Shown here: positions 1,542 to 54,800 of the stretch, piece by piece
Numbering within the stretch: position 1 is the stretch's first letter
How the letters are laid out: each line of letters begins with the position of its first letter
From: an uncultured Chloroherpeton sp.
GTDB lineage: Bacteria > Bacteroidota > Ignavibacteria > Kapaibacteriales > UBA2268
Assembly: GCA_964500435.1 (NCBI GenBank)
Contig: CAZCNL010000003.1
Span: forward strand, 40,664-104,663
Direction of reading: 5' to 3'
Length of the DNA: 64,000 nt
Notes under the pieces: generated by a model
What the model saw: only the letters and a program-made list of their open reading frames with translations
Databases searched by the model: none
Told to the model about the DNA's origin: nothing
Made by a program: the position numbers and the translations under genes

Positions 1542-2783
1542 ATGAAAAAAATAATTTTAATTTTTATTTTCTTCCCAATGATATTATTATCTCAAGAGGA
1601 AAAACAAATAGAGGAAATACGTAATAATAGTATAAAAATATTTATCGATTGCAACCGATGTGATAATGATTATATTCGCAGAGAAATTCAGTTTGTGAAT
1701 TATGTGCGTATTCAACAAGATGCCGACGTTTATATATTAGTTACACAGCAAAGCACTGCGTCGCATGGATTTGAATTCGTATTTTATTTTATCGGACAAA
1801 ATAAATTTGAAGGAGTAAATGATACATTGAACTTAACTTCAAATTTAAATGAAACAACTGATGATATACGGCAAAATATGGTGCAAATAATCAAATTAGG
1901 ATTGATTAAATATGTATCTAAAACAGAAGTTTCTAAATTTATTTCAATAAATATAAATTTACCTGAACGAAAAGAAGAAATTGTAGATAAGTGGAATCAA
2001 TGGTATTTTAAGATTTCATCAGATATTTATACAAGTGGAGAAAAAATGTTTAGTTCATTAAATATTTGGTCAAATATCTCTGCAAGTAAAATTAATAATG
2101 ATTGGAAATATCAATTTTCACTATCAAATAGTTATAGCAATTCTCATTATAAATTAGACGATACTACAACAATTATTTCTGAAACACAGAGTTATTCATT
2201 TTATAATCTAATTGTTAAAAGTATTGACGAGCACTGGTCTTTTGGCGAAGAAATAAATTTGAAGTCAAGTAGTTATTCCAACTATAAATTAACTGCTTCA
2301 TTTATTCCTGCAATTGAATTCAATATTTTCCCATTTAGTGAATCTTCAAGAAGGGAATTTCGTTTCTTTTACGGAATTGGAATAAAACAAAACTATTATA
2401 TTGACACAACCATTTATCTTAAAACCCAAGAGTTGCTTTTCTTACAATCACTAAAAATGGGATTTCAAAAAATTGAACAATGGGGCTCTGCTTCATTTTA
2501 TGTTTATTGGTCTAATTATTTGAGTAATTTCAAATTAAACAATTTATCTTTAAATAGCTATATAAGTTGGAGGATATTTGGCGGTCTTTCCTTCAATATG
2601 AACGGTGGAATATCATTTATTCATGACCAAATAAATCTTCGAAAATCTACTGCTTCAAGTGAAGAAATTCTTACAAGGCAAAGACAATTGGAATCTCAAT
2701 ATAGTTATTGGCTTTCTGGTGGCATTTCTTATTCATTTGGTTCCATTTATAATAACATTGTAAACCCTCGATTTGATTTATAG
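1542..2783 (+). CDS. Hypothetical secreted protein, probable outer-membrane beta-barrel
   Basis: Signal peptide MKKIILIFIFFPMILLS with Q at +1. The C-terminal ~280 aa are Asn/Ser/Tyr-rich with alternating hydrophobic strands. No recognisable catalytic motif. Confidence 0.5.
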   Translation: MKKIILIFIFFPMILLSQEEKQIEEIRNNSIKIFIDCNRCDNDYIRREIQFVNYVRIQQDADVYILVTQQSTASHGFEFVFYFIGQNKFEGVNDTLNLTSNLNETTDDIRQNMVQIIKLGLIKYVSKTEVSKFISININLPERKEEIVDKWNQWYFKISSDIYTSGEKMFSSLNIWSNISASKINNDWKYQFSLSNSYSNSHYKLDDTTTIISETQSYSFYNLIVKSIDEHWSFGEEINLKSSSYSNYKLTASFIPAIEFNIFPFSESSRREFRFFYGIGIKQNYYIDTTIYLKTQELLFLQSLKMGFQKIEQWGSASFYVYWSNYLSNFKLNNLSLNSYISWRIFGGLSFNMNGGISFIHDQINLRKSTASSEEILTRQRQLESQYSYWLSGGISYSFGSIYNNIVNPRFDL

Positions 2784-3064
2784 TTTTCAAAGGTTGCTTT
2801 TGAAAATTTTCATATAAAATGATAAAGACATCTATTGAAATTCCTTTTTAACTCTCTATAAATTAATACTGTGTAATTTTAATTTTTTTATTAAGTGGAA
2901 AACTTGTTTATTTATTTAACTATCTGCAATATATATATTTATAACATTGTTAATATACATTAACTTAACTTTAACATATTTTAACTTGAACCAAACATAA
3001 ACTAAATACTAAAAGAGGAATTTTGTATTATGATTATTTGGTTGATTAATTATTAGGTTAAGTT

Positions 3065-5968
3065 ATGAAAAATTCCAACAAAATTTACTATCTATTACTT
3101 CTACTTTTTTCAGTTCACATCGCATTTGCGGAAAACGGTACTATTACTGGTAAAATATACGATGAATCAGCAGGTACCACACTTCCTAAGGCAACAATTG
3201 TTGTTAAAGGAACCAAACTTGGAACGTATTCCGATATTAAAGGTGAATTCAAAATTAAAAATGTGCCTTTCGGAACATATACTCTTGAAGCAAGATATAT
3301 TGGATATCAAACGAAGGAAATTAAAAATGTAGTTGTTAATGGAAATATCGATGACATTCAAATTGTTCTGAGTCCACAAGTTTCACAAGGAAAAGAAATA
3401 GTCGTTGAGGAAAAAAGAGTCAATGACAACGAAGCGGCAATATTAGCACAAAGGAAAAATGCGAATCAAGTTAGTGATGGGATATCCATTCAAGAAATTA
3501 AGAGAACTGACGATGGCGACGCTGGACAATCTTTAAAGAGAGTTGCGGGAATAACGCTTGTAAATGATAAGTTCGTTTATATTCGAGGAACAAGTGAGAG
3601 ATACAGCAACACCACATTAAATGGCGCATCATTAGCATCAACAGAGCCTGACAAAAAAGCATTTGCTTTTGATATGTTCCCGAGTGATTTTTTACAAAGT
3701 GCACAAGTTATTAAATCATTTACTCCTGATTTACCCGCAAATTTTGCAGGTGGATTAGTGGAATTAAATACAATTGATTTTCCTCAAAAAAAGAATATTG
3801 GCTTTAATATTTCTTCTGGTCTTAATTCGCAAACAACTTTTCAAGATAATAAATTTATTTCGTTCCCAGGAAGCAATGCAAGCTGGTTAGGCTTTGACAA
3901 AAACTATTTTTCTTACCCAACAAATACTCCTAATAGCCCAGAAGCAATGAGGAATTTGTTGTTTAATGATTTGAAATCAACTGACCCAACTATTCAGAAA
4001 GCGGCAGAACAGCAATGGTTCCAAATGGGTAAGTCATTTAAAGATGATGTGTGGGACCCAAAAAAATACACAGCAAATCCAAATATGGGATTAAGTTTGT
4101 CATATGCTGATATTTTTTCAGTTGCTGAAAATGATTTAGGTCTTGTTGCAACTGTTAACTATGGTAACTCCCGTACGTTTTTGCCAATTTATAGAAGTGT
4201 ACTTTATTCAAATGGCAACGACCTTTATTATTATAGTGATGGCGTACAATCAACTTATTCTACGAATTTAGGAAGTTTAGTTAATATTTCATATAAAATT
4301 GGCAAAGCAAGTTCAATTAGTTTTAAAAATACATTCAATAATACAAGTGATTGGGAAGTAATCCAAATTAAAGGTAAAAAAGAAGTTAATTACATAATGC
4401 AAATGAGTATGGAATATCTTCAAAAAACGATATTTTCATCTCAACTTACAGGAGAGCATTTATTAGATTTTCAAAATTCACAAATTAATTGGCGATTAGG
4501 TTATTCATTTTCCAATAGAGAACAACCTGATTTAAGACGGGTTCGTTATTCAACAAATGATACAACACAACCATATCGTTTAGACCTTTACAGTTTACCC
4601 CAAGGAAATAGTAGTCAAGCAGGGCGATTTTATTCATCATTAAATGAAAATGCATACTCTGGAGGTCTGGACTATAAAATTCCATTTGGTAATTTAAATT
4701 TGAAAATTGGAACTTTAATTGAAAATAAGCATCGTGATTTTAAAGTTAGGTCATTTACAATTGTAGAAACTAAAAGCATAATCCGTTCATATTACGACGA
4801 AAGTGCAGGATATTATGTTAAAAATTATACAGACCCTCAAGTAACTGATTTATATTATATCAATGATTTAAACGAAATGAACCCAGCAATTATCTTTAAT
4901 CCAAATAATTTTTATTTGCATGGATTAGGGTTAAGCGAAGATACTAAAAATACAGATTCATATAAGGCAAACGAAAGCATTTATGCAGGTTATTTTATGG
5001 TTGATTTTCCAGTCGATTTGTTTTCAAGAAAGTTAAAAGTAATTGCTGGAGCAAGATACGAAGTCAGCCAGCAATTACTCAATAATTATTATCCATTTTA
5101 CAATCAAGAAACAAAGACTTATTATGATTCAAATTTCGTAAATAAACAATTTAATGATATTTTACCTTCATTGAACCTTGTTTACGAACTTAATAATAAA
5201 ATGAATTTAAGGGCTTCGGCAACACAAACCTTAGCAAGACCATCACTTAGAGAATATGCACCATTTACATTTTATGATTTTCTTTTCCAAAGTAATGTGA
5301 AGGGAAATCCAAATTTGAAAAGAGCATTGATTCAAAATTATGATTTACGCTATGAATGGTTCACAAATCCTGGTGAAATATTCTCAGTGAGCGCTTTTTA
5401 CAAAATTTTCGACAATGCAATAGAAGAAACAATTTTGCCAACATCAAGCGAATATGACCGGACATTCACAAATGCTCAAGGTAAAGCATATAATTATGGG
5501 ATAGAATTAGAAGCAAGAAAGAACTTAGGATTCCTTGCCGATTTCTTAAGTTATTTAAGCGTTAATGCGAATTTATCATTAATTAAATCTGAAATTACTG
5601 TCCAACAAGTTGCTAAAAAAGATACAAGACCAATGTGGGGACAATCTCCATACTCAATTAACCTTGGACTATATTATTTCAATCCTGAAATTGGCACATC
5701 ATTCAATTTAGCATACAATACTTACGGAAAAAGAATAATTCAAGTAGCAGACGTTGCAGCATATTCATTTGCAAACCCACATATTTACGAGATGCCAAGA
5801 AATATGGTTGATATATCTTTATCGCAAAAGTTATTTGAGTTTGTTAATCTTAAATTATCTGTTAAGAATTTGTTAAATGATGAGCTTGTTTGGGAACAAA
5901 ATGGCAAACAAGTAGCAACAAATCTTTACGGAACAAACTATAATTTGAGCTTTGATATTAAATTTTAA
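3065..5968 (+). CDS. TonB-dependent receptor, SusC/RagA-like, with N-terminal carboxypeptidase-regulatory-like domain
   Basis: Signal peptide, then a CarbopepD_reg-like segment (GTITGKIYDE...KGTKLGTYSDIKGEFKIKNVPFGTYTLEARYIGY). A plug domain follows (DGISIQEIKRTDDGDAGQSLKRVAGITL...YIRGTSERYSNTTLNGASL). A long beta-barrel ends in a terminal Phe. Length 967 aa. Confidence 0.85.
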   Translation: MKNSNKIYYLLLLLFSVHIAFAENGTITGKIYDESAGTTLPKATIVVKGTKLGTYSDIKGEFKIKNVPFGTYTLEARYIGYQTKEIKNVVVNGNIDDIQIVLSPQVSQGKEIVVEEKRVNDNEAAILAQRKNANQVSDGISIQEIKRTDDGDAGQSLKRVAGITLVNDKFVYIRGTSERYSNTTLNGASLASTEPDKKAFAFDMFPSDFLQSAQVIKSFTPDLPANFAGGLVELNTIDFPQKKNIGFNISSGLNSQTTFQDNKFISFPGSNASWLGFDKNYFSYPTNTPNSPEAMRNLLFNDLKSTDPTIQKAAEQQWFQMGKSFKDDVWDPKKYTANPNMGLSLSYADIFSVAENDLGLVATVNYGNSRTFLPIYRSVLYSNGNDLYYYSDGVQSTYSTNLGSLVNISYKIGKASSISFKNTFNNTSDWEVIQIKGKKEVNYIMQMSMEYLQKTIFSSQLTGEHLLDFQNSQINWRLGYSFSNREQPDLRRVRYSTNDTTQPYRLDLYSLPQGNSSQAGRFYSSLNENAYSGGLDYKIPFGNLNLKIGTLIENKHRDFKVRSFTIVETKSIIRSYYDESAGYYVKNYTDPQVTDLYYINDLNEMNPAIIFNPNNFYLHGLGLSEDTKNTDSYKANESIYAGYFMVDFPVDLFSRKLKVIAGARYEVSQQLLNNYYPFYNQETKTYYDSNFVNKQFNDILPSLNLVYELNNKMNLRASATQTLARPSLREYAPFTFYDFLFQSNVKGNPNLKRALIQNYDLRYEWFTNPGEIFSVSAFYKIFDNAIEETILPTSSEYDRTFTNAQGKAYNYGIELEARKNLGFLADFLSYLSVNANLSLIKSEITVQQVAKKDTRPMWGQSPYSINLGLYYFNPEIGTSFNLAYNTYGKRIIQVADVAAYSFANPHIYEMPRNMVDISLSQKLFEFVNLKLSVKNLLNDELVWEQNGKQVATNLYGTNYNLSFDIKF

Positions 5969-40233: not shown

Positions 40234-41445
40234 ATGAATTTAAGCAAATTTATTTCTTCTCGATTTTGGGATACTGAAAATAGACGATTTGTTAACTTTG
40301 CTCGATATTTTGCGATTGCAAGTATTGTAATTGGTTCCTTAGCTTTGGTTTTATCTTTATCAGTCCTTGAAGGATATGATAAAGAACTAAGAAAAAATGC
40401 AGTTAAATTCACAGCCCATATTAACTTGCAAACTTTTAACCGCCAAATTATTCAAGATTACCAAAAATATATTCCGAAAATGTTACATTTTTTTAAAGAA
40501 ATCAAAAGTGTCGAACCTGTTATTAAAAGTGAAGCATTAATAAAGAACCAAAATAACGTTGAAGGAATATTTTTAAGAGGTGTGCCTCCAACTTATAATT
40601 TTTCTTCCTTCACAAATGACTTGACTTCAGGAAAATTTGATATTAAGGAAAAAAACTCGATAGTTTTAGGGAAAAGATTAGCAGAAAAATTGCATTTAAA
40701 AATCGGGGACGAAGTAATTTTATTCGGCATAAAATCCATTGAATCCTTGTCAAACGTAAATTATACAATTGCAAAGTACAAAGTAGTTGGAATTTTTCAA
40801 TCAAATATGGCTCAATATGATGATATTGTGGCATATATTAATTTTCAAAATGCACAAAATTTAATGGGTTTGCAAAATAATGAAATAACAAATTTTGAAA
40901 TTATGTTGGATGATGTAACAAAAAGTCCAACCACTGCTGAAAAATTAGAAAAGTATTTGGGATATCCATTTTATGCATTGACAGTATATGATTTGCACCG
41001 TTCAGTTTTTTCTTGGATTGAATTACAAAAAGAACCAATTCCGATTGTTTTAGGATTAATTACAATTATTGCAGCCTTTAATATTGTTACAACTCTTTTT
41101 ATTATAGTAGTAGAAAAAATTAAATCTATAGCCACATTAAGGGCAATAGGGCTTCCAAGAAAGATTGTCGTATCAATTTTTGTTAATTTAGGGCTAAGTT
41201 TAGGGTTAATTGGTTCGTTTGTTGGTTCGACAATTTGTTTAATTTTTAGTTATTTGCAACAAAATTATCATTTAATTAAATTGAATGGCGACATATATTT
41301 TCTCGATGTTTTACCAGTTGAAATTGTTCCTATACATTACATTATTGTAATTATATTAACCACACTCTTATCTTTTTTGGCTACTTTAATTCCAGCAATT
41401 GTAGCATCGAAAATAAATCCAATTCAAGCATTTAGATTTAAATAG
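40234..41445 (+). CDS. ABC-transporter permease of the FtsX/LolC/LolE (MacB-like) family
   Basis: N-terminal TM helix, a MacB-like periplasmic domain, and a C-terminal FtsX 3-TM bundle. No ATPase gene is adjacent. Confidence 0.7.
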   Translation: MNLSKFISSRFWDTENRRFVNFARYFAIASIVIGSLALVLSLSVLEGYDKELRKNAVKFTAHINLQTFNRQIIQDYQKYIPKMLHFFKEIKSVEPVIKSEALIKNQNNVEGIFLRGVPPTYNFSSFTNDLTSGKFDIKEKNSIVLGKRLAEKLHLKIGDEVILFGIKSIESLSNVNYTIAKYKVVGIFQSNMAQYDDIVAYINFQNAQNLMGLQNNEITNFEIMLDDVTKSPTTAEKLEKYLGYPFYALTVYDLHRSVFSWIELQKEPIPIVLGLITIIAAFNIVTTLFIIVVEKIKSIATLRAIGLPRKIVVSIFVNLGLSLGLIGSFVGSTICLIFSYLQQNYHLIKLNGDIYFLDVLPVEIVPIHYIIVIILTTLLSFLATLIPAIVASKINPIQAFRFK

Positions 41446-43798: not shown

Positions 43799-44197
43799 AT
43801 GAATTTTGAATTTTACGATTTTCCAAAAATCACAATAAATGGCAAAATTTATTGGGAAGTTCTTTCCAAAAAAGATTTAAAAGAAAAAAAAGGTGTTAAG
43901 GTTCAATTAGGTGACGATTACGATTTGCAAGTCGCTATTTTCTTAGTGGATGAGCAATTGTATTGCGTTTCTAATGTTTGCCCTCATAAACATCAAGATA
44001 AAATTTACGAAGGATTTATTAAAGATACCCAAATAATGTGTCCTTTACATGGTTGGACATATAATTTAAAAACAGGTGAGAATGTAAATAATAGACAAGG
44101 AGTTAAAAGACTTAATACTTATCAAGTAATTGAATTAGACGGGAAAATTTATATCGAAGAACCAGAAATAAGTTTGCCGAAATGGCGAACAACTTAA
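43799..44197 (+). CDS. Small Rieske [2Fe-2S] domain protein (NirD-like)
   Basis: CPHKH...(17 aa)...CPLHGW Rieske ligand boxes in 132 aa. Starts 2 nt after the kinase gene. Confidence 0.75.
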   Translation: MNFEFYDFPKITINGKIYWEVLSKKDLKEKKGVKVQLGDDYDLQVAIFLVDEQLYCVSNVCPHKHQDKIYEGFIKDTQIMCPLHGWTYNLKTGENVNNRQGVKRLNTYQVIELDGKIYIEEPEISLPKWRTT

Positions 44198-44213: not shown

Positions 44214-46103
44214 ATGGAAATTCCAGTAAATATTAAAAATATTCTTTTGGAAGAAAAGCTCGATTTTATCGAAGGATTAAGCGATATTTTACTTGAAAAA
44301 ATTACTAATTTAACCACAAAACCTGGAGTTTATTTACATAAGAATAAAGAAGGTAAAGTAATTTATGTTGGCAAAGCAAAAAATTTAAAAAATCGAATTA
44401 AATCTTATTTCCAGCAAGGGCGTATCGTTGATGCAAAAACTAAAGCAATGGTCAGCCATATTGCGGATTTCGATTATATAGTTGTCGATACTGAAGAAGA
44501 AGCTTTCATTTTGGAAGACAACTTAATTAAAAAGTATAAACCAAAATATAATATACTTTTGAAAGATGATAAAACTTATCCATATATTAAAGTTACAAAT
44601 GAAGAATTCCCAAAAGTATTTTCGACTCGTAAATTAATTAAAGATGGTTCCAAATATTTTGGACCTTTTGCTGATGTTCGTTCGATGAATCATATGATAA
44701 GATTAATCCGAAGTTTATTTTATGTTAGGTCTTGTAAGTTGAAATTAACCGAGGAAACTATAAAACAAGGGAAGTTTAAAGTTTGTTTGGATTATCATAT
44801 ACATAAATGCGAAGCTCCTTGTGTCGGTTTTGTTTCGAAAGAGCATTACAATGATAATATTAAAAAAGGTATTCAAATTTTGCAAGGTAGAACGAAGGAA
44901 GTCGAAAAACTCCTTGAAGAAAAAATGCTAAATTTAGCTGAGGAATTGAAATTTGAAGAGGCAAATGATATAAAAAATAAAATTTTAAAATTAAAAGACT
45001 TTTCCTCTCATCAAAAAATTGTTTCAACCGATTTAAAAGACCGAGATATTTTCGGCATTGCAAGACAAAAGGAATATGTTTGCTCGGTAGTTTTTACTGT
45101 AAGAGAAGGCAAGTTGATAGGACGCAAGCATTTTATTGTTAAAGATAATTTACAATCAGAAGAAGCAGAAATTACCAAAACAACAATTGAAAAATGGTAT
45201 TTGGAAAGTGATTTTTTGCCACAAGAGATTTATTTACCTACAGAGCCGGATGATTTGGAACTTATAACCGATTGGTTAAAGCATAAATATAAAAAATCAG
45301 TTATTATATCTATTCCACAGTCTGGTGAAAAGCGAAAGCTCGTAGAAATGGCAAATTCCAATGCTGAATTGATTTTAGAAGATTACATTGCTGCAAGCGA
45401 AAGCAGAGAAAAAATTATTTCCAAATCTGTGCTTGCTTTGCAAAGAGATTTAAAATTATCAAGACCGCCATTAAGAATTGAATGTTTTGATAATTCGCAC
45501 ATTCAAGGAACGGATTTAGTATCTTCAATGGTTGTGTTCGAAAATGGAAAATCCAAGAAAGCAGATTATCGAAAATTTAAAAATGAAACTGTGTTGAAAA
45601 ATGATGACTTTGCAACAATGAAAGAAGTTATTAATAGACGATACAGCAGATTGATTAATGAAAAAGCGCATTTGCCGGATTTAATTGTAATAGATGGGGG
45701 AAAGGGTCAACTTTCTGCTGCTTGGGAAGTTTTAAATGAATTACAAATTGCAAACAAAGTATACGTAATTGGGTTAGCAAAAAGATTAGAAGAAATATTT
45801 TTTCCTGAAAATCCTGAATCTTTAATATTACCGAGAAGTTCGAGCAGTTTGAGATTATTGCAACAAATTCGAGATGAAGCTCATAGGTTTGCAATAACGT
45901 TCCATCGTAAGCTTCGTGACAAGCGTACATTGCAAACAGAATTAAGTCAAATTGAAGGAATTGGCAAAATTAAAGCCGAAAAGCTATTAAAGCAATTCGG
46001 CTCTGTTAAACAAATCCAGCAGGCATCTTTTGAAGATTTAGTTAAAGTTGTTAATCAAAAAGATGCTAATAAAATAATTGAATTCTTTAAGAACAAAAGT
46101 TAA
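44214..46103 (+). CDS. uvrC: Excinuclease ABC subunit C
   Basis: N-terminal GIY-YIG (GVYLHKNKEGKVIYVGKAKNLKNRIKSYF), UvrBC-interaction region, RNase H-like endonuclease domain, and C-terminal (HhH)2. Confidence 0.9.
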   Translation: MEIPVNIKNILLEEKLDFIEGLSDILLEKITNLTTKPGVYLHKNKEGKVIYVGKAKNLKNRIKSYFQQGRIVDAKTKAMVSHIADFDYIVVDTEEEAFILEDNLIKKYKPKYNILLKDDKTYPYIKVTNEEFPKVFSTRKLIKDGSKYFGPFADVRSMNHMIRLIRSLFYVRSCKLKLTEETIKQGKFKVCLDYHIHKCEAPCVGFVSKEHYNDNIKKGIQILQGRTKEVEKLLEEKMLNLAEELKFEEANDIKNKILKLKDFSSHQKIVSTDLKDRDIFGIARQKEYVCSVVFTVREGKLIGRKHFIVKDNLQSEEAEITKTTIEKWYLESDFLPQEIYLPTEPDDLELITDWLKHKYKKSVIISIPQSGEKRKLVEMANSNAELILEDYIAASESREKIISKSVLALQRDLKLSRPPLRIECFDNSHIQGTDLVSSMVVFENGKSKKADYRKFKNETVLKNDDFATMKEVINRRYSRLINEKAHLPDLIVIDGGKGQLSAAWEVLNELQIANKVYVIGLAKRLEEIFFPENPESLILPRSSSSLRLLQQIRDEAHRFAITFHRKLRDKRTLQTELSQIEGIGKIKAEKLLKQFGSVKQIQQASFEDLVKVVNQKDANKIIEFFKNKS

Positions 46104-48283: not shown

Positions 48284-50623
48284 TTATTCTTCAGCTAAAA
48301 CAATTACTTGCAAATGCTCATTGATTTGTATAACTGTTTTTTTATTTGGGTTTATAACATATTCATTATCAGCATTATCATAAATATATCCTATTGCAGT
48401 TTCATTGTAAACTGAAAAAATATCAATAATTTCGGCAAAAGTTAATTGATTTTGTTGTATATCAGCATAATCTTTTAATCTTCGGAAATATAACTCAGAA
48501 CCCTCTGATGTAAAGAGAATATTAAATGCTTTTTCTAATTCTCTTTCTTCGGATAATTGAGCTAAAATTGAACTTACCATTGTTGAACCAATGATATAAT
48601 CGCTGACTTGCTCATTTTTTGCTAACTCCTCATTAAATTTATTTAAAAGCTCAACAACAACTGAGTATTTGCGATTGTATTCTTTTGCGATATCTCGTAA
48701 ATGAATCAATGAAACTAATGTTATAGAATCTGCTGCTTCCATCTCTAATTCTTCATTGTTACTTAAAATTATTATATCGTCTTTGTCTTTTGTAATCTCA
48801 ACTAAAAAATCTTTATCTGTAATATCCCCAATACTAAAAGTAACATTTAATTCTCCAATTTTATAAGAATTATCATTAATTAATACGAAACTGTTTCTTA
48901 CTTTTTCATCATTGCAATTTTTAATATAATCTATTGTTTTTTTGAATTCTTCAGAATTAAAGGGTACAACAGTTAAATTGCATTCTAACTTTATATAAGA
49001 AGATAATTCACAAATAATCAATTCAAGTTTGTTATTTGAACCTAAGATTAAGAAATTTTTTGATTGCATATTCGAAACGACATCTTTTTTGGTATTATAA
49101 TTATGGATAGTCGGAATCTTAACAGGTGAATATTTAATTGTGCTATCATCTTCAGCAAGAATTACTAACTTATCCTCAGGTTTAAAAACGTAGTCCATAG
49201 GTGGATTTAATACGCAACCATTAAATTCATTTAAAATACCAAAAGGACAAGATTCTTGAAAATCAAATAATAACTCATAAAAAGTCTTTCCGATTAAATT
49301 GCGACCAACTTTTTTATTTGTTTCATCAACAATATATAATTCGCTCCCTTGAAAACCTATAATTTCACTAATAACTTTGGTCAACTTATGGTTAATAGTT
49401 GATTGGGTAATAATTCTCGACAAGAAGTTTGTTGAATTGAACACAATCAATTGGTCAGATGCGATACTTTTAGCAATCTTGATTGTTTTTTGGTCTGAAA
49501 TTTCGGCAGTAATATGAAATTTATTAATGGAATTTTTAGGTTTATGGTTAATTAATGCAATTATTGATTTAAGAATTGGCATATCATCAATATAATTGTC
49601 ATCTTTTAAAATAATAATTGAATTAGATTCCCAAGCATTTGCAATAATTAAATCAGAAAGAGACTGTGGCGAACCATTTCTGAAACTAATTTTGGTAGTT
49701 TGTGTATTTTCAAAATAATCCCGCAATGTTAAATCAATTTCATTTTTGTCACGTTCAGCTAAAATCACAATATGTGCTTTTTCTTTACTATAATTTGCTT
49801 CTATTAATTCCTCAATAATTTTGAAAATGTTTTGGGACCAACCTAAAATTAGAGTATGATTAGTATAAAGTATTGGCGATTTGCCACGTTTTTCATTTTC
49901 TTTTGTAGATTCCATATCAGATGTAATGATGCCAATAAATAAATTTAAAAATATCATTGCTGCGATGAATTGGAAACTTATGAAAAATAATGAAAATATC
50001 CAATCTGGAAATCCCGAATTTAAAAGCTTTTGTATTCCTTCGCTTTCGTAGAGACTTGACCAACCTTCGAATGTAATAAATAATAATCGCTTCATTGAAA
50101 TCCAAATGCTGCCGAAATTTTCAGCGTCAACTTTTCCAAACAAATCTGTTGCAATTATTCCATAAACATAAAAAAGAAGCATCAACAGCAAAACAACATA
50201 AGTCATTGAAGGAATACTTCGTAATAATGATGTAAGTAATATTTTTAAATTTTTGTTTTTTTCAAAAATTTTTGCAAATCTTAAAATTCTTGCTAATCGG
50301 ATTACGACTAAATATTGAGTGTCAATAACTGGAAAGAAAAAAGGTACGAAACAAACTGCTACAACCAAAAAATCAAAAATATGCCAAGAATCATAAAAAA
50401 ATCGCCAAGGGTATTTGCCTTCTGCTAAAATATTTATTATTATTTCAATAGCGAAAATAAGCAAGATTAAGTTATCAAAAAAATCTAAGATACTTCCATA
50501 TTTTGATGTTATTGATGGAGAAGTCTGCAACCCAACAACAACTCCTGTTAATAATATTACAATGTTTATGAAATTTTCAAATTTTTTTGAATGTGCAATC
50601 TTTTTAAATTTTGCTTGCCACAT
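48284..50623 (-). CDS. Voltage-gated cation channel-like protein (6TM, NaChBac-like pore) fused to large cytoplasmic tandem RCK/TrkA-like domains
   Basis: S4 helix with Arg/Lys every third position (VVIRLARILRFAKIF). Pore loop LLFITFEGWSSLYE resembles the TLESW filter of bacterial NaV/CaV channels. About 500 aa of cytoplasmic sequence follow, with two Rossmann-like ILGxS... segments. Confidence 0.55.
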   Translation of the reverse strand: MWQAKFKKIAHSKKFENFINIVILLTGVVVGLQTSPSITSKYGSILDFFDNLILLIFAIEIIINILAEGKYPWRFFYDSWHIFDFLVVAVCFVPFFFPVIDTQYLVVIRLARILRFAKIFEKNKNLKILLTSLLRSIPSMTYVVLLLMLLFYVYGIIATDLFGKVDAENFGSIWISMKRLLFITFEGWSSLYESEGIQKLLNSGFPDWIFSLFFISFQFIAAMIFLNLFIGIITSDMESTKENEKRGKSPILYTNHTLILGWSQNIFKIIEELIEANYSKEKAHIVILAERDKNEIDLTLRDYFENTQTTKISFRNGSPQSLSDLIIANAWESNSIIILKDDNYIDDMPILKSIIALINHKPKNSINKFHITAEISDQKTIKIAKSIASDQLIVFNSTNFLSRIITQSTINHKLTKVISEIIGFQGSELYIVDETNKKVGRNLIGKTFYELLFDFQESCPFGILNEFNGCVLNPPMDYVFKPEDKLVILAEDDSTIKYSPVKIPTIHNYNTKKDVVSNMQSKNFLILGSNNKLELIICELSSYIKLECNLTVVPFNSEEFKKTIDYIKNCNDEKVRNSFVLINDNSYKIGELNVTFSIGDITDKDFLVEITKDKDDIIILSNNEELEMEAADSITLVSLIHLRDIAKEYNRKYSVVVELLNKFNEELAKNEQVSDYIIGSTMVSSILAQLSEERELEKAFNILFTSEGSELYFRRLKDYADIQQNQLTFAEIIDIFSVYNETAIGYIYDNADNEYVINPNKKTVIQINEHLQVIVLAEE

Positions 50624-51623: not shown

Positions 51624-52340
51624 TTAATTGCCAATAAATAATGGTGATGGTTTTACATCACCAAATAAAAAAATAGGTACATCAGGATAATCAGGATTAT
51701 TAGTTAACAGCAAAATCTTTCCTTTTAATACGCCAACTTCATTAGGAGAAAAAGTTATAGTCAATGGGTATGAATCATTTTTCTTGATTATTTGTCCATC
51801 TTTTAAATTAACTCGAACATCCGATGGGGAAATTGAACCAATATTAACTATTACGTCCATATCTGATTTATTATTTAATGTTATTGTTTGGCTACTTGTT
51901 TCGCCTACACGAATATCAGTAAATGAAATAAATGAACTTGGTGAAACAAAGATATCACGTCTTATATCTGCTTTTAATGTTAATTCTAAAACACTATTTT
52001 TCGGATCGTTTGAAAACACTCTAATAGATTTTTGGATTGGTCCTTGGTATGATGATATTGATAAAGTTATTATCATACTTGTTTTCTCACCAGGTGCTAA
52101 AACATTTTTTGTGAGAGGTGCATTTGTGCAACCACAAGTAGGTTGAACATGTGTTATAACTAATGTATCAGTTCCAGTATTTCTCAATTCAATTTCGGCA
52201 TTTAATGGGTGGTCTTTTGGTTTTACTATTCCCCAATCAATGGTTGTGCCTTTTGGAAAGAATAATGTAGGTTCAGAAAATAGACAAATATTAGAAAATA
52301 GAAATATTAAAATCACACTATATTTAAGGCGGTTTATCAT
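51624..52340 (-). CDS. DUF1573 domain-containing secreted protein
   Basis: Signal peptide. NTGTDTLVITHVQPTCGCT matches the DUF1573 signature (F.N.G..PL.I..V..SCGCT). Confidence 0.65.
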   Translation of the reverse strand: MINRLKYSVILIFLFSNICLFSEPTLFFPKGTTIDWGIVKPKDHPLNAEIELRNTGTDTLVITHVQPTCGCTNAPLTKNVLAPGEKTSMIITLSISSYQGPIQKSIRVFSNDPKNSVLELTLKADIRRDIFVSPSSFISFTDIRVGETSSQTITLNNKSDMDVIVNIGSISPSDVRVNLKDGQIIKKNDSYPLTITFSPNEVGVLKGKILLLTNNPDYPDVPIFLFGDVKPSPLFIGN

Positions 52341-52420: not shown

Positions 52421-53638
52421 TTATTTGAATAAAGAAAATTTTATAAGCTGACAATAATTCTTAGTTTGGATTTTGATGAAATAAATTCCACTTGAATAAG
52501 GGTAAGTTTCAAGAAAAATCTTATTTAAACCAATTTGTAATTTATGGTCATTAATTGATTGTAGCATATTCCCGAATATATCAATGATTTCTATATTCAC
52601 ATAGTAATCTGAATTAGTTTGAATTTGCAAGAAAGAATCATCATTATTTGTAAAAAAATCGCATTTAAACAAATTATTATCTTCTAAATTTACGGAAGTG
52701 TTCGATTTTGCTTCTCCTGAATTTGCATTTACCATAAGGCTTGATATATCAACAGCTTCGAAATCACTTCCTTTGATTTGTTTAAGCTCATTTATTGCAT
52801 CATTATTCCATCTTTCGTCGGGAACGCCTGAAATGAACCATGCAGAACCATTATCAGCAAGAATCATCCCATATTTTTTTAATGCTGTTAAAATAACTTG
52901 AGCTTCTTTGGAAAATGTTGAAATATTCACGCTATTTTTTAATCGGAAAACCTGTCCCATAGGTGGATATTTCTCATCAGTAATTGAAGAAGCATAATGT
53001 CTTGCGGGCCATTTATATTTTCGTTGAGTTTTTGGTACCGTAAATCTAATCATATGTTTAATTTCTCCAGCAGCGACTTCATCATATCTTACCAAACCTG
53101 GTAATATAGGTAATCCAGCAGCATCTGCTGAAGTCCACGAATCAGGACGTAGAGAATTTGAATTCAAATCAAAAATTGCTCCTGAACCTGCTCTCCAACT
53201 ACCATCCGGATTTTTATATGCAGAATAAAGTTCATATAATATGCAGTTGTCCTTATCAACTATTAAAATATGTCTATCACCGTTACTATCTTCGCCCCCT
53301 TCAATCAGTGGATTGTCTGGTATTGGATAAGGTCCTTTGTCAGATTCATCTGCATATTCGAATTGCACGAATACTTTTTTTTGATCGCCATCAACAATTG
53401 TATATGGAATCCCAATAGGCGCATTATTCCATAAACCAGAACCAAAATCAGGATGCAAATTTTTTGTTAGACCTATTGTTTGTATGTAAATATCTGAATT
53501 TTTATCTACTGGTAATTTATCAATTGGTGTGTTCCAAATATTGTTTGATGGTAATATTGAACAGGGCATTTCAACTTGTGCTAATGTAACAAAAGTTGAT
53601 ATTAATATAGTTGTGAAAATGAATAATATGTTCTTCAT
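52421..53638 (-). CDS. Secreted protein of unknown function with C-terminal T9SS sorting domain
   Basis: Signal peptide with Q at +1. A ~300 aa conserved-looking domain (HILIVDKDNCILYELY, MIRFTVP...WPARH, GMILADNGSAWFISG) with no family I can name. C-terminal ...GIYFIKIQTKNYCQLIKFSLFK CTD. Confidence 0.55.
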   Translation of the reverse strand: MKNILFIFTTILISTFVTLAQVEMPCSILPSNNIWNTPIDKLPVDKNSDIYIQTIGLTKNLHPDFGSGLWNNAPIGIPYTIVDGDQKKVFVQFEYADESDKGPYPIPDNPLIEGGEDSNGDRHILIVDKDNCILYELYSAYKNPDGSWRAGSGAIFDLNSNSLRPDSWTSADAAGLPILPGLVRYDEVAAGEIKHMIRFTVPKTQRKYKWPARHYASSITDEKYPPMGQVFRLKNSVNISTFSKEAQVILTALKKYGMILADNGSAWFISGVPDERWNNDAINELKQIKGSDFEAVDISSLMVNANSGEAKSNTSVNLEDNNLFKCDFFTNNDDSFLQIQTNSDYYVNIEIIDIFGNMLQSINDHKLQIGLNKIFLETYPYSSGIYFIKIQTKNYCQLIKFSLFK

Positions 53639-54724: not shown

Positions 54725-54800
54725 GTCGGAGTGACTGGACTCGAACCAGCGACCCCTGCGTCCCGAACGCAGTACTCTAGCCAACTGAGCTACACTCCGA
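54725..54800 (-). tRNA. tRNA-Pro (anticodon CGG)
   Basis: The reverse complement folds as a cloverleaf. Acceptor stem TCGGAGT/ACTCCGA, anticodon stem CTGCG/CGCAG with loop TTCGGGA, T-arm GGTTCGAGTCC. 76 nt, no encoded CCA. Confidence 0.85.

Follow-up and report, generated by a model that had tools for sequence, protein, structure and literature searches.

A channel protein of an uncultured Chloroherpeton sp. with a CavMr/NavPp-like voltage-gated module and a CASTOR/DMI1-type tandem-RCK region

Can a pore of the kind found in voltage-gated Na+ and Ca2+ channels be combined in one subunit with a cytoplasmic ring of regulator of K+ conductance (RCK) domains? This question was raised by a gene on the minus strand of a contig from an uncultured Chloroherpeton sp. 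(GenBank assembly GCA_964500435.1, contig CAZCNL010000003.1). The gene lies within the 64,000-nucleotide stretch analysed here (positions 40,664 to 104,663 of the contig; hereafter the window) and encodes a protein of 779 amino acids. The open reading frame (ORF) was found to be uninterrupted at 48284-50623, from an ATG to a TAA, and its coordinates and length agreed with those given in an earlier sequence-only reading. A Pfam search of the protein returned Ion_trans at residues 14-244 (E 8.6e-34), Slo-like_RCK at 255-346 (E 3.3e-08) and Castor_Poll_mid at 399-500 (E 5.9e-16), and an NCBIfam search of it returned nothing useful. The AlphaFold2 model, built from an 80-sequence alignment as a single chain and not as a tetramer, had a mean predicted local distance difference test score (pLDDT) of 91.9 and a predicted TM-score (pTM) of 0.86, with no segment below a pLDDT of 50. 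Six transmembrane (TM) helices were present in the N-terminal module of the model, and together with the Ion_trans match they bore out the 6TM voltage-gated channel that the sequence-only reading had placed there. The two-module architecture is essentially certain. From comparisons of sequence and predicted structure, we consider it moderately probable that the gene encodes the subunit of a cation channel that is a homotetramer, is regulated by voltage and Ca2+ and is probably permeable to Ca2+.

The identical 779-residue protein was called on four contigs, two different sequencing runs among them, and the neighbouring genes were unchanged. Moreover, the complete architecture was found in 27 further clusters, defined at 90% identity; they were 32-50% identical overall, and their pattern of conservation was strongly non-random. 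The identical copies and the conserved clusters show that the ORF is a real conserved gene and not a chance frame. Conservation within the fusion clade is given below for an alignment of 28 sequences, 24 of which have a voltage-sensor domain (VSD).

The motif FITFEGWSS (residues 182-190) was confirmed at the position after the pore helix where it had been noticed before. When the 110-residue pore was searched alone against the PDB, only pores of bacterial voltage-gated Na+ channels (BacNaVs; NavCt, NavAe1p, NaChBac, NavMs and NavAb) and a few CaV chains were found among the 60 matches listed; a search with the full-length protein added CaV3 and NaV repeats. In phmmer alignments to the NavCt, NavAe and NaChBac pores, TFEGW fell column for column on TLESW, and a MAFFT alignment with the published BacNaV set also put T-x-E-x-W in the TLESW register. 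A K+-channel lineage for the pore was rejected, since no K+ channel occurred among the 60 matches listed and the filter aligned on TLESW; the NaV/CaV type assigned to the pore by the sequence-only reading was thereby upheld. In the fusion clade the filter glutamate E186 was conserved in 27/28 sequences, and both the glycine at filter position 4 (G187) and the S6 asparagine N227 were present in all 28.

The same reading had called the pore NaChBac-like, and on this point it has to be amended. When residues 1-245 only were used as query, standalone channels of approximately 300 amino acids were matched at 40-47% identity, several of them labelled Ignavibacteria. The filters of 120 such relatives were TLEGWID (52), TLEDWTD (28, the NavPp filter), TLEGWAD (8), TLEGWVD (3, the CavMr filter) and others, and TLESW occurred in none of the 120. 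Neighbour-joining trees (200-300 bootstraps) were calculated from the Figure 1 source data of Shimomura et al. 2020 (PMC7041947) with 23 channel modules from fusions and 13 standalone relatives. The Bacillus group and the NavAb-like group were recovered with bootstraps of 98% and 89%, respectively, and these two canonical groups were separated from all others with 81%. The core fusion clade, which includes the 779-residue protein, had a bootstrap of 98% and was placed on the side of the ancestor-like BacNaVs (AnclNav; CavMr and NavPp). The channel module had a mean identity of 31% to each of the two canonical groups; the mean was 36% for the published AnclNavs, with a maximum of 44%, and 44% for the standalone relatives. 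The AnclNav motif of the S2-S3 loop, EGKxPWR[YF]F, was also present (EGKYPWRFF, compared to EGKKPWRYF in NavPp). A NaChBac-like or NavAb-like affinity was ruled out by the filter motifs, the identities and the tree, and given the tree, the identities and the shared loop, "NaChBac-like" should therefore read "CavMr/NavPp-like".

The S4 segment has the sequence VVIRLARILRFAKIFEK, in which R109, R112, R115 and K118 are spaced at every third position, as the sequence-only reading had stated. R109, R112 and R115 were each conserved in 24/24 of the VSD-bearing clade members, and position 118 was K or R in all of them. The charge-transfer centre consists of D50, F57 and E60 in S2 and D84 in S3; F57, E60 and D84 were each found in 24/24, and D50 in 23/24 with E in the remaining one. 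Because the charges and the charge-transfer centre are invariant in a clade whose members are only 32-50% identical, the VSD is best regarded as a sensor under selection. The S4-S5 helix had 12 residues in the model, the same length as in NavAb and CavMr, and no insertion or deletion was found between S4 and S5 in the alignment with NavAb, NaChBac or CavMr. The BacNaV length of this linker suggests, by analogy, that the voltage sensor is domain-swapped, unlike that of BK.

S6 continued in the model as one helix into the cytosol up to residue 246 and was followed by a 10-residue linker to strand beta1 of RCK1. This linker was gap-free in 28/28 clade sequences, indicating a fixed length. The neck and four-helix coiled coil of BacNaVs were not found after S6 in the alignment, the model or the Pfam search. 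The linker and approximately 530 further residues follow instead, which agrees with the earlier proposal of RCK modules where BacNaVs have a coiled coil. A motif spanning the end of S6 and the linker, GIITS...KRGKS...HTLILGW, was shared with CASTOR and the prokaryotic CASTOR-like proteins. The simplest history would be one in which the membrane part of a CASTOR-like protein gave way to a 6TM AnclNav module, or vice versa, the junction lying within S6 or at its end.

One alternative is that the RCK region serves mainly as a module for tetramerisation or stability that replaces the coiled coil of a plain voltage-gated channel, or that the VSD is vestigial and the channel purely ligand-gated. The BacNaV C-terminal bundle, an element of assembly and of inactivation tuning, is exactly the part that was replaced, and CASTOR-2TM is functional without the first two TM helices (PMC6697748). 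Both versions appear quite improbable: a region of some 530 residues that conserves ion ligands, joined by a linker of fixed length, goes far beyond what assembly needs, and the invariance of the gating charges and charge-transfer centre at such low overall identity argues against a vestigial VSD.

The best PDB sequence matches of the RCK region were the LjCASTOR rings 6o6j and 6o7c (phmmer E 4e-43 and 6e-43), aligned in two stretches (query 246-552 and 648-763), and the MtDMI1 ring 7vm8 was matched with E 2.6e-36. Foldseek against the PDB returned DMI1 and CASTOR ring protomers as top hits, with TM-scores of 0.89-0.92 (normalised to target length); the superposition on these rings had a root-mean-square deviation of 2.5-3.1 A over approximately 535 columns at 23-26% identity. 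Full-length Slo1 and Slo2.2 chains followed (E approximately 1e-21, approximately 950 columns). Since sequence, model and Foldseek agree, the C-terminal region is a tandem-RCK protomer of the CASTOR/DMI1 type. The two tandem RCK modules proposed by the sequence-only reading are thus sustained as RCK folds, not CBS or unrelated ones, and the likeness to CASTOR/POLLUX that it had noted can be narrowed to the CASTOR/DMI1 type specifically. The nucleotide-binding motif GxGxxG was found in neither RCK, the beta1-alphaA turns being GWSQNI and GSNNKL, and TrkA_N was not matched in the Pfam search of the protein. A nucleotide-binding RCK was rejected on these two results.

Three Ca2+ sites have been described in CASTOR (Kim et al. 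2019, PMC6697748): Ca(I) lies between two N-lobes with D442 and D444; Ca(II) is held by E493 in a bidentate manner and by the backbone of F489, N491 and E552; and Ca(III) by the backbone of A342 and by S345, D553 and D554. Replacement of E493 by A or Q cripples or abolishes channel activity and abolishes nodulation, and a Na+/K+ site by which open probability is modulated also lies in cluster II (PMC6697748). Every side-chain ligand of Ca(II) and Ca(III) was identical in the 779-residue protein. Counted over 80 sequences (24 fusion-type and 56 prokaryotic CASTOR-like), the ligands were kept in 58-80 (Table 1), which makes cluster II a family-wide conserved feature. Nucleotide and Ca2+ sites had both been named earlier as features to look for in this region; CASTOR-type Ca2+ ligands were present and the nucleotide motif was not found. 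Ca2+ is the ring ligand that we infer from this sequence conservation. The CASTOR residue D442 corresponds to D377, which was D in 18/28 of the fusion clade.

A separate group of acidic residues was observed in RCK2, namely E658 (48650-48652), D675 (48599-48601) and D632 (48728-48730). They were near-invariant or invariant, common to the fusion and the prokaryotic CASTOR-like proteins, and matched no described CASTOR ion site. These residues may form a further ligand site.

In CavMr, with the filter TLEGWVD, the glycine at position 4 is the main determinant of Ca2+ selectivity: the permeability ratio of Ca2+ to Na+ (PCa/PNa) was lowered to 11.9 by G4S and to 7.7 by G4D, and was still 144 in D7M, in which a single acidic residue is left (PMC7041947). 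NavPp carrying the CavMr filter had a PCa/PNa of 215, and NavPp-D4G acquired divalent selectivity (PMC7041947). Animal CaVs also keep the position-4 glycine in their repeats I and III, and repeat III of CaV1.2 (STFEGWPE) has a TFEGW core identical to that of the filter studied here. Because the module is CavMr/NavPp-like, the filter points to permeation of Ca2+ or divalent cations more than of Na+. As judged from sequence, the pore is likely to be Ca2+-permeable and may or may not be highly Ca2+-selective.

Several observations weigh against a Ca2+-permeable, Ca2+-regulated channel. Filter position 6 was Ser in 27/28 of the clade, and in CavMr the mutation V6T lowered Ca2+ selectivity and, like G4S, gave channels permeable to K+ and Cs+ (PMC7041947). 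Position 7 was non-acidic (S190 in the 779-residue protein; W, G, S or D across the clade). The filter tryptophan, normally near-invariant in NaV/CaV channels, corresponds to W188 (50060-50062) and was I, V, M or A in 6/28 clade members. Compared to all BacNaV and AnclNav sequences examined, most clade members lacked one residue of the P1 helix directly ahead of the filter. Filter swaps between CavMr and NavAb gave no current (PMC7041947), so backbone context matters; since positions 6 and 7, W188 and the P1 helix deviate, the selectivity rules of CavMr may not transfer to the fusion clade. Support for the deep nodes of the tree, which was built from distances, is moderate (58-81%, with 58-64% at the deeper ones). 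In the ring, cluster I and the inter-lobe lock were not kept (D444 to K379, H463 to T398 and R589/R590 to N530/N531), and CASTOR's reported activation by Ca2+ and selectivity for this ion are based mostly on a single study (PMC6697748).

The deviations in the filter bear on an alternative, in line with the earlier NaChBac-like label, in which the same architecture and dual control would serve a Na+-selective or non-selective monovalent pore, which would depolarise the cell and admit no Ca2+. Canonical Na+-selective BacNaVs likewise have a single ring of glutamates and no other acidic filter residue, NavAb (TLESWSM) also has Ser at position 6, and W188 and position 7 are loosely conserved in the clade. 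Moreover, a fusion of a NavAb-like module to RCK domains with a genuine Na+-type filter exists (P0274, below). Such a pore is nevertheless judged unlikely, if by no means negligible, in view of the invariant G187 where canonical Na+ filters have Ser, the CavMr/NavPp lineage, the PCa/PNa kept by CavMr D7M and the TFEGW core shared with CaV1.2 repeat III.

The loss of cluster I is likewise a point in favour of a ring that senses something other than Ca2+, such as Mg2+, Na+/K+, pH, a nucleotide or a metabolite, with the acidic cluster acting as a structural element or a site for another ion. RCK domains bind diverse ligands, CASTOR cluster II includes the Na+/K+ site, some prokaryotic CASTOR-like relatives match TrkA_N (PF02254), and the invariant RCK2 acids E658 and D675 lie outside the described sites. 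A ring of this kind is considered rather improbable: all Ca(II) and Ca(III) side-chain ligands are kept, several of them in 74-80 of the 80 sequences, and neither RCK has a glycine-rich nucleotide loop or a TrkA_N match.

For the favoured voltage- and Ca2+-regulated channel, the following mechanism is proposed. Four subunits would assemble into a homotetramer in which four CASTOR/DMI1-type tandem-RCK domains form a cytoplasmic gating ring, and the four filters TFEGWSS would together form a glutamate ring, with the position-4 glycine coming next. Depolarisation would move S4, which would act on the S6 gate via the S4-S5 linker. [quoted passage not shown] As S4 and the ring would both act on S6, opening would depend on both voltage and internal Ca2+. 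The pore would most likely pass Ca2+, possibly with monovalent cations, and Ca2+ that enters could consequently regulate the channel it came through. Architecture, module homologies, channel-module lineage, rarity and the conservation of charges, filter and Ca2+ ligands are direct results of the comparisons; assembly into a tetramer with a ring, domain swapping, ion selectivity and the sign of regulation are what we infer for this protein.

The earlier description of the architecture as uncommon was confirmed. In an exhaustive HMMER scan of 1.84 billion representatives at 50% identity, approximately 12-14 matched end to end: P0001, P0006, P0011, P0021, P0022, P0024, P0028, P0241-P0243, P0245, P0274 and two N-truncated entries. 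Pfam confirmation of the end-to-end architecture was obtained for three of these representatives. In 185,579 species genomes, at least 8 loci matched over most or all of the query length, two of them ending at contig ends. They were from metagenome-assembled genomes (MAGs), namely four of Candidatus Kapaibacterium, one of Ignavibacteria, one of Chloroherpeton, one unclassified and one labelled "Hyphomicrobiales"; the remaining loci among the matches listed were ordinary CASTOR-like genes of approximately 630 amino acids. In a Chloroherpeton MAG (CAYOPF010000002.1; L008, 1726-4069), the ortholog was split into two overlapping ORFs, with the channel part at 1726-2694 (56% identity) and the RCK part at 2627-4069. 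A frameshift, an error of assembly or a gene that is truly split could account for this. No description of a BacNaV/CaV channel with RCK domains was found in the literature, the coverage of which was incomplete, chiefly for subscription journals, and absence there is not proof. Two known modules are present here in a combination that was not found described.

The fusion P0274 (745 amino acids; L083 6001-8238, Logan SRR21150963 contig) had the same C-terminal type as the 779-residue protein. Its channel module was NavAb-like (bootstrap 89%, 41% identity) with the filter TMESWSM, and its S4 was lengthened to approximately nine R/K charges. The P0274 gene lies directly downstream of radical-SAM/SPASM genes. 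Other outlier fusions had the filters TFDDWSQ, TGEAWPD and TGEGWPD. Since the P0274 module is NavAb-like and the clade of the 779-residue protein lies on the AnclNav side, RCK rings have been joined to at least two BacNaV lineages. The tree of the C-terminal, RCK side had bootstraps below 20 at the relevant nodes and was uninformative as to independent fusion or module exchange. The better-scoring relatives of the N-terminal module included the long proteins P0330, P0340, P0353, P0357 and P0378, in which EF-hands follow a pair of Ion_trans repeats; a pore of this kind is thus linked to a Ca2+ sensor by other means.

Proteins known to carry RCK rings are K+ channels and transporters (MthK, BK/Slo, GsuK, Trk/Ktr) as well as plant CASTOR/DMI1. 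To our knowledge, no BacNaV or CavMr channel has been described with a tail other than a coiled coil. It is possible, and put forward tentatively, that among natural proteins of the NaV/CaV superfamily this is the first in which an RCK ring controls gating. It would then be a Ca2+ channel activated by both voltage and Ca2+ ("BK-style CaV") with self-feedback, and the ring would be an exchangeable module attached at least twice, to different BacNaV lineages. If so, Ca2+ feedback could give rise to regenerative Ca2+ transients in some Ignavibacteriota, Kapabacteria and Chlorobi-related bacteria, and the channel would be a candidate effector for bacterial Ca2+ signalling. It would also make it possible to ask how one gate is controlled jointly by a ring and a swapped voltage sensor, a question to which BK is unsuited because it is not swapped, and would serve as a prokaryotic model, small and homotetrameric, of the way in which Ca2+ regulates a CaV-like pore. 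Finally, the disputed Ca2+-sensing role of the CASTOR-type ring could be tested directly in a channel from a pore family amenable to electrophysiology, BacNaVs being well expressed in Sf9 and HEK cells.

Table 1. Features of the channel-subunit gene in the window and CASTOR ligands mapped on its product; conservation counted over 80 sequences.
Feature	Residues	Coordinates	Strand	Conservation	Basis
Whole channel-subunit gene	779 aa	48284..50623	-		ATG start; TAA stop at 48284-48286
Voltage-sensor domain S1-S4	13-121	50261..50587	-		model helices
S4 helix, gating charges R109, R112, R115, K118	102-121	50261..50320	-		clade conservation
S4-S5 linker helix	124-135	50219..50254	-		model
Pore domain S5-P1-filter-P2-S6	137-246	49886..50215	-		pore search, model, alignment
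Selectivity filter TFEGWSS; E186 charge ring, G187 position-4 glycine	184-190	50054..50074	-		alignment on TLESW/TLEGW
S6-to-RCK1 linker, GKSPILYTNH	247-256	49856..49885	-		gap-free alignment
RCK1: N-lobe, Castor_Poll_mid region, peripheral subdomain	257-520	49064..49855	-		Pfam, phmmer, model, Foldseek
RCK2	521-779	48287..49063	-		phmmer stretch 648-763 to CASTOR; Foldseek over whole ring protomer
CASTOR A342, S345 (Ca(III) ligands, RCK1 N-lobe)	A276...S279	49787..49798	-		pairwise alignment mapping
CASTOR E493 (bidentate Ca(II) ligand)	E428	49340..49342	-	80/80	pairwise alignment mapping
CASTOR E552-D553-D554 (Ca(II) backbone ligand; Ca(III) carboxylates)	E491-D492-D493	49145..49153	-		pairwise alignment mapping
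CASTOR F489	F424			75/80	
CASTOR E552	E491			70/80	
CASTOR D553	D492			79/80	
CASTOR D554	D493			74/80	
CASTOR A342	A276			79/80	
CASTOR S345	S279			58/80, N in 17	

Within ±4 kb, the window had no neighbouring gene in common with the seven full-length loci compared, so the genomic context is not conserved. A gene for an M3 peptidase lies 92 bp downstream of the channel gene on the same strand; this gene and uvrC were rejected as operon partners, since they recur only on contigs with the identical protein. Directly upstream of uvrC (44214-46103), a 132-residue ORF with a Rieske-type motif (CPHKH ... CPLHGW) was found at 43799-44197 on the plus strand. A DUF1573 protein is encoded at 51624-52340 and a weak match to Por_Secre_tail, a sorting domain of the type IX secretion system (T9SS), at 52421-53638, both on the minus strand. 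The sole RNA gene found by Rfam and ARAGORN in the 64-kb window was a tRNA-Pro (CGG) at 54725-54799 on the minus strand. The GC content of the window was 26-36%, and taken with these T9SS-type neighbours it fits a host from the FCB group (Ignavibacteriota, Kapabacteria or Chlorobi). A promoter scan was uninformative at 26-30% GC.

When compared to known systems, the protein shares with CavMr and NavPp (AnclNav; PMC7041947) the single-repeat 6TM architecture, the T-x-E-G-W filter with position-4 glycine and the S2-S3 loop motif. In contrast, filter positions 6-7 are V/I/T and D/E in those channels and S-S here, the neck and coiled coil are replaced by approximately 530 residues of tandem RCK, one residue of P1 is deleted, and the P2-S6 turret is shorter than that of CavMr. 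With respect to the traits of the AnclNav subgroup, G187 agrees with the Gly or Asp, not Ser, at filter position 4, whereas S190 departs from the D/E at position 7, a residue that Ca2+ selectivity can do without, as D7M of CavMr shows (PMC7041947).

The tandem-RCK protomer with a Castor_Poll_mid region is shared with the rings of LjCASTOR, LjPOLLUX and MtDMI1 (6o6j, 6o7a, 6o7c and 7vm8; PMC6697748). CASTOR differs in its membrane part of four TM helices, which includes a 2TM pore, in having neither a voltage sensor nor a NaV filter, and in its location in the plant nuclear envelope (PMC6697748), whereas the protein described here has a 6TM Ion_trans module. The closest proteins to the C-terminal two thirds were those named "CASTOR/POLLUX-related putative ion channel" by NCBI (approximately 630 amino acids, 27-33% identity from S6). 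They are widespread in Bacteroidota, Chloroflexota, Pseudomonadota and other phyla but have no Ion_trans domain or voltage sensor, and most of them align from residue ~200-220 on, a few from ~145. No paper characterising these prokaryotic proteins was found.

The Slo family (BK/Slo1, Slo2.2 and Slo3) has the VSD, pore and tandem RCK in one chain and in the same order. A Ca2+ bowl is present in Slo channels, and an additional S0 in Slo1. Identity to the Slo channels was only 12-14%, their K+ filter is TVGYG compared to TFEGWSS here, and the 779-residue protein has no poly-Asp bowl. Its S4-S5 linker is of BacNaV length, whereas in Slo channels, as stated in a review, this linker is short and domain swapping is absent. 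Strictly, the protein is a member of neither the BacNaV, the CASTOR nor the Slo family, being without the coiled coil of the first, the 4TM part and cluster I of the second and the K+ filter of the third.

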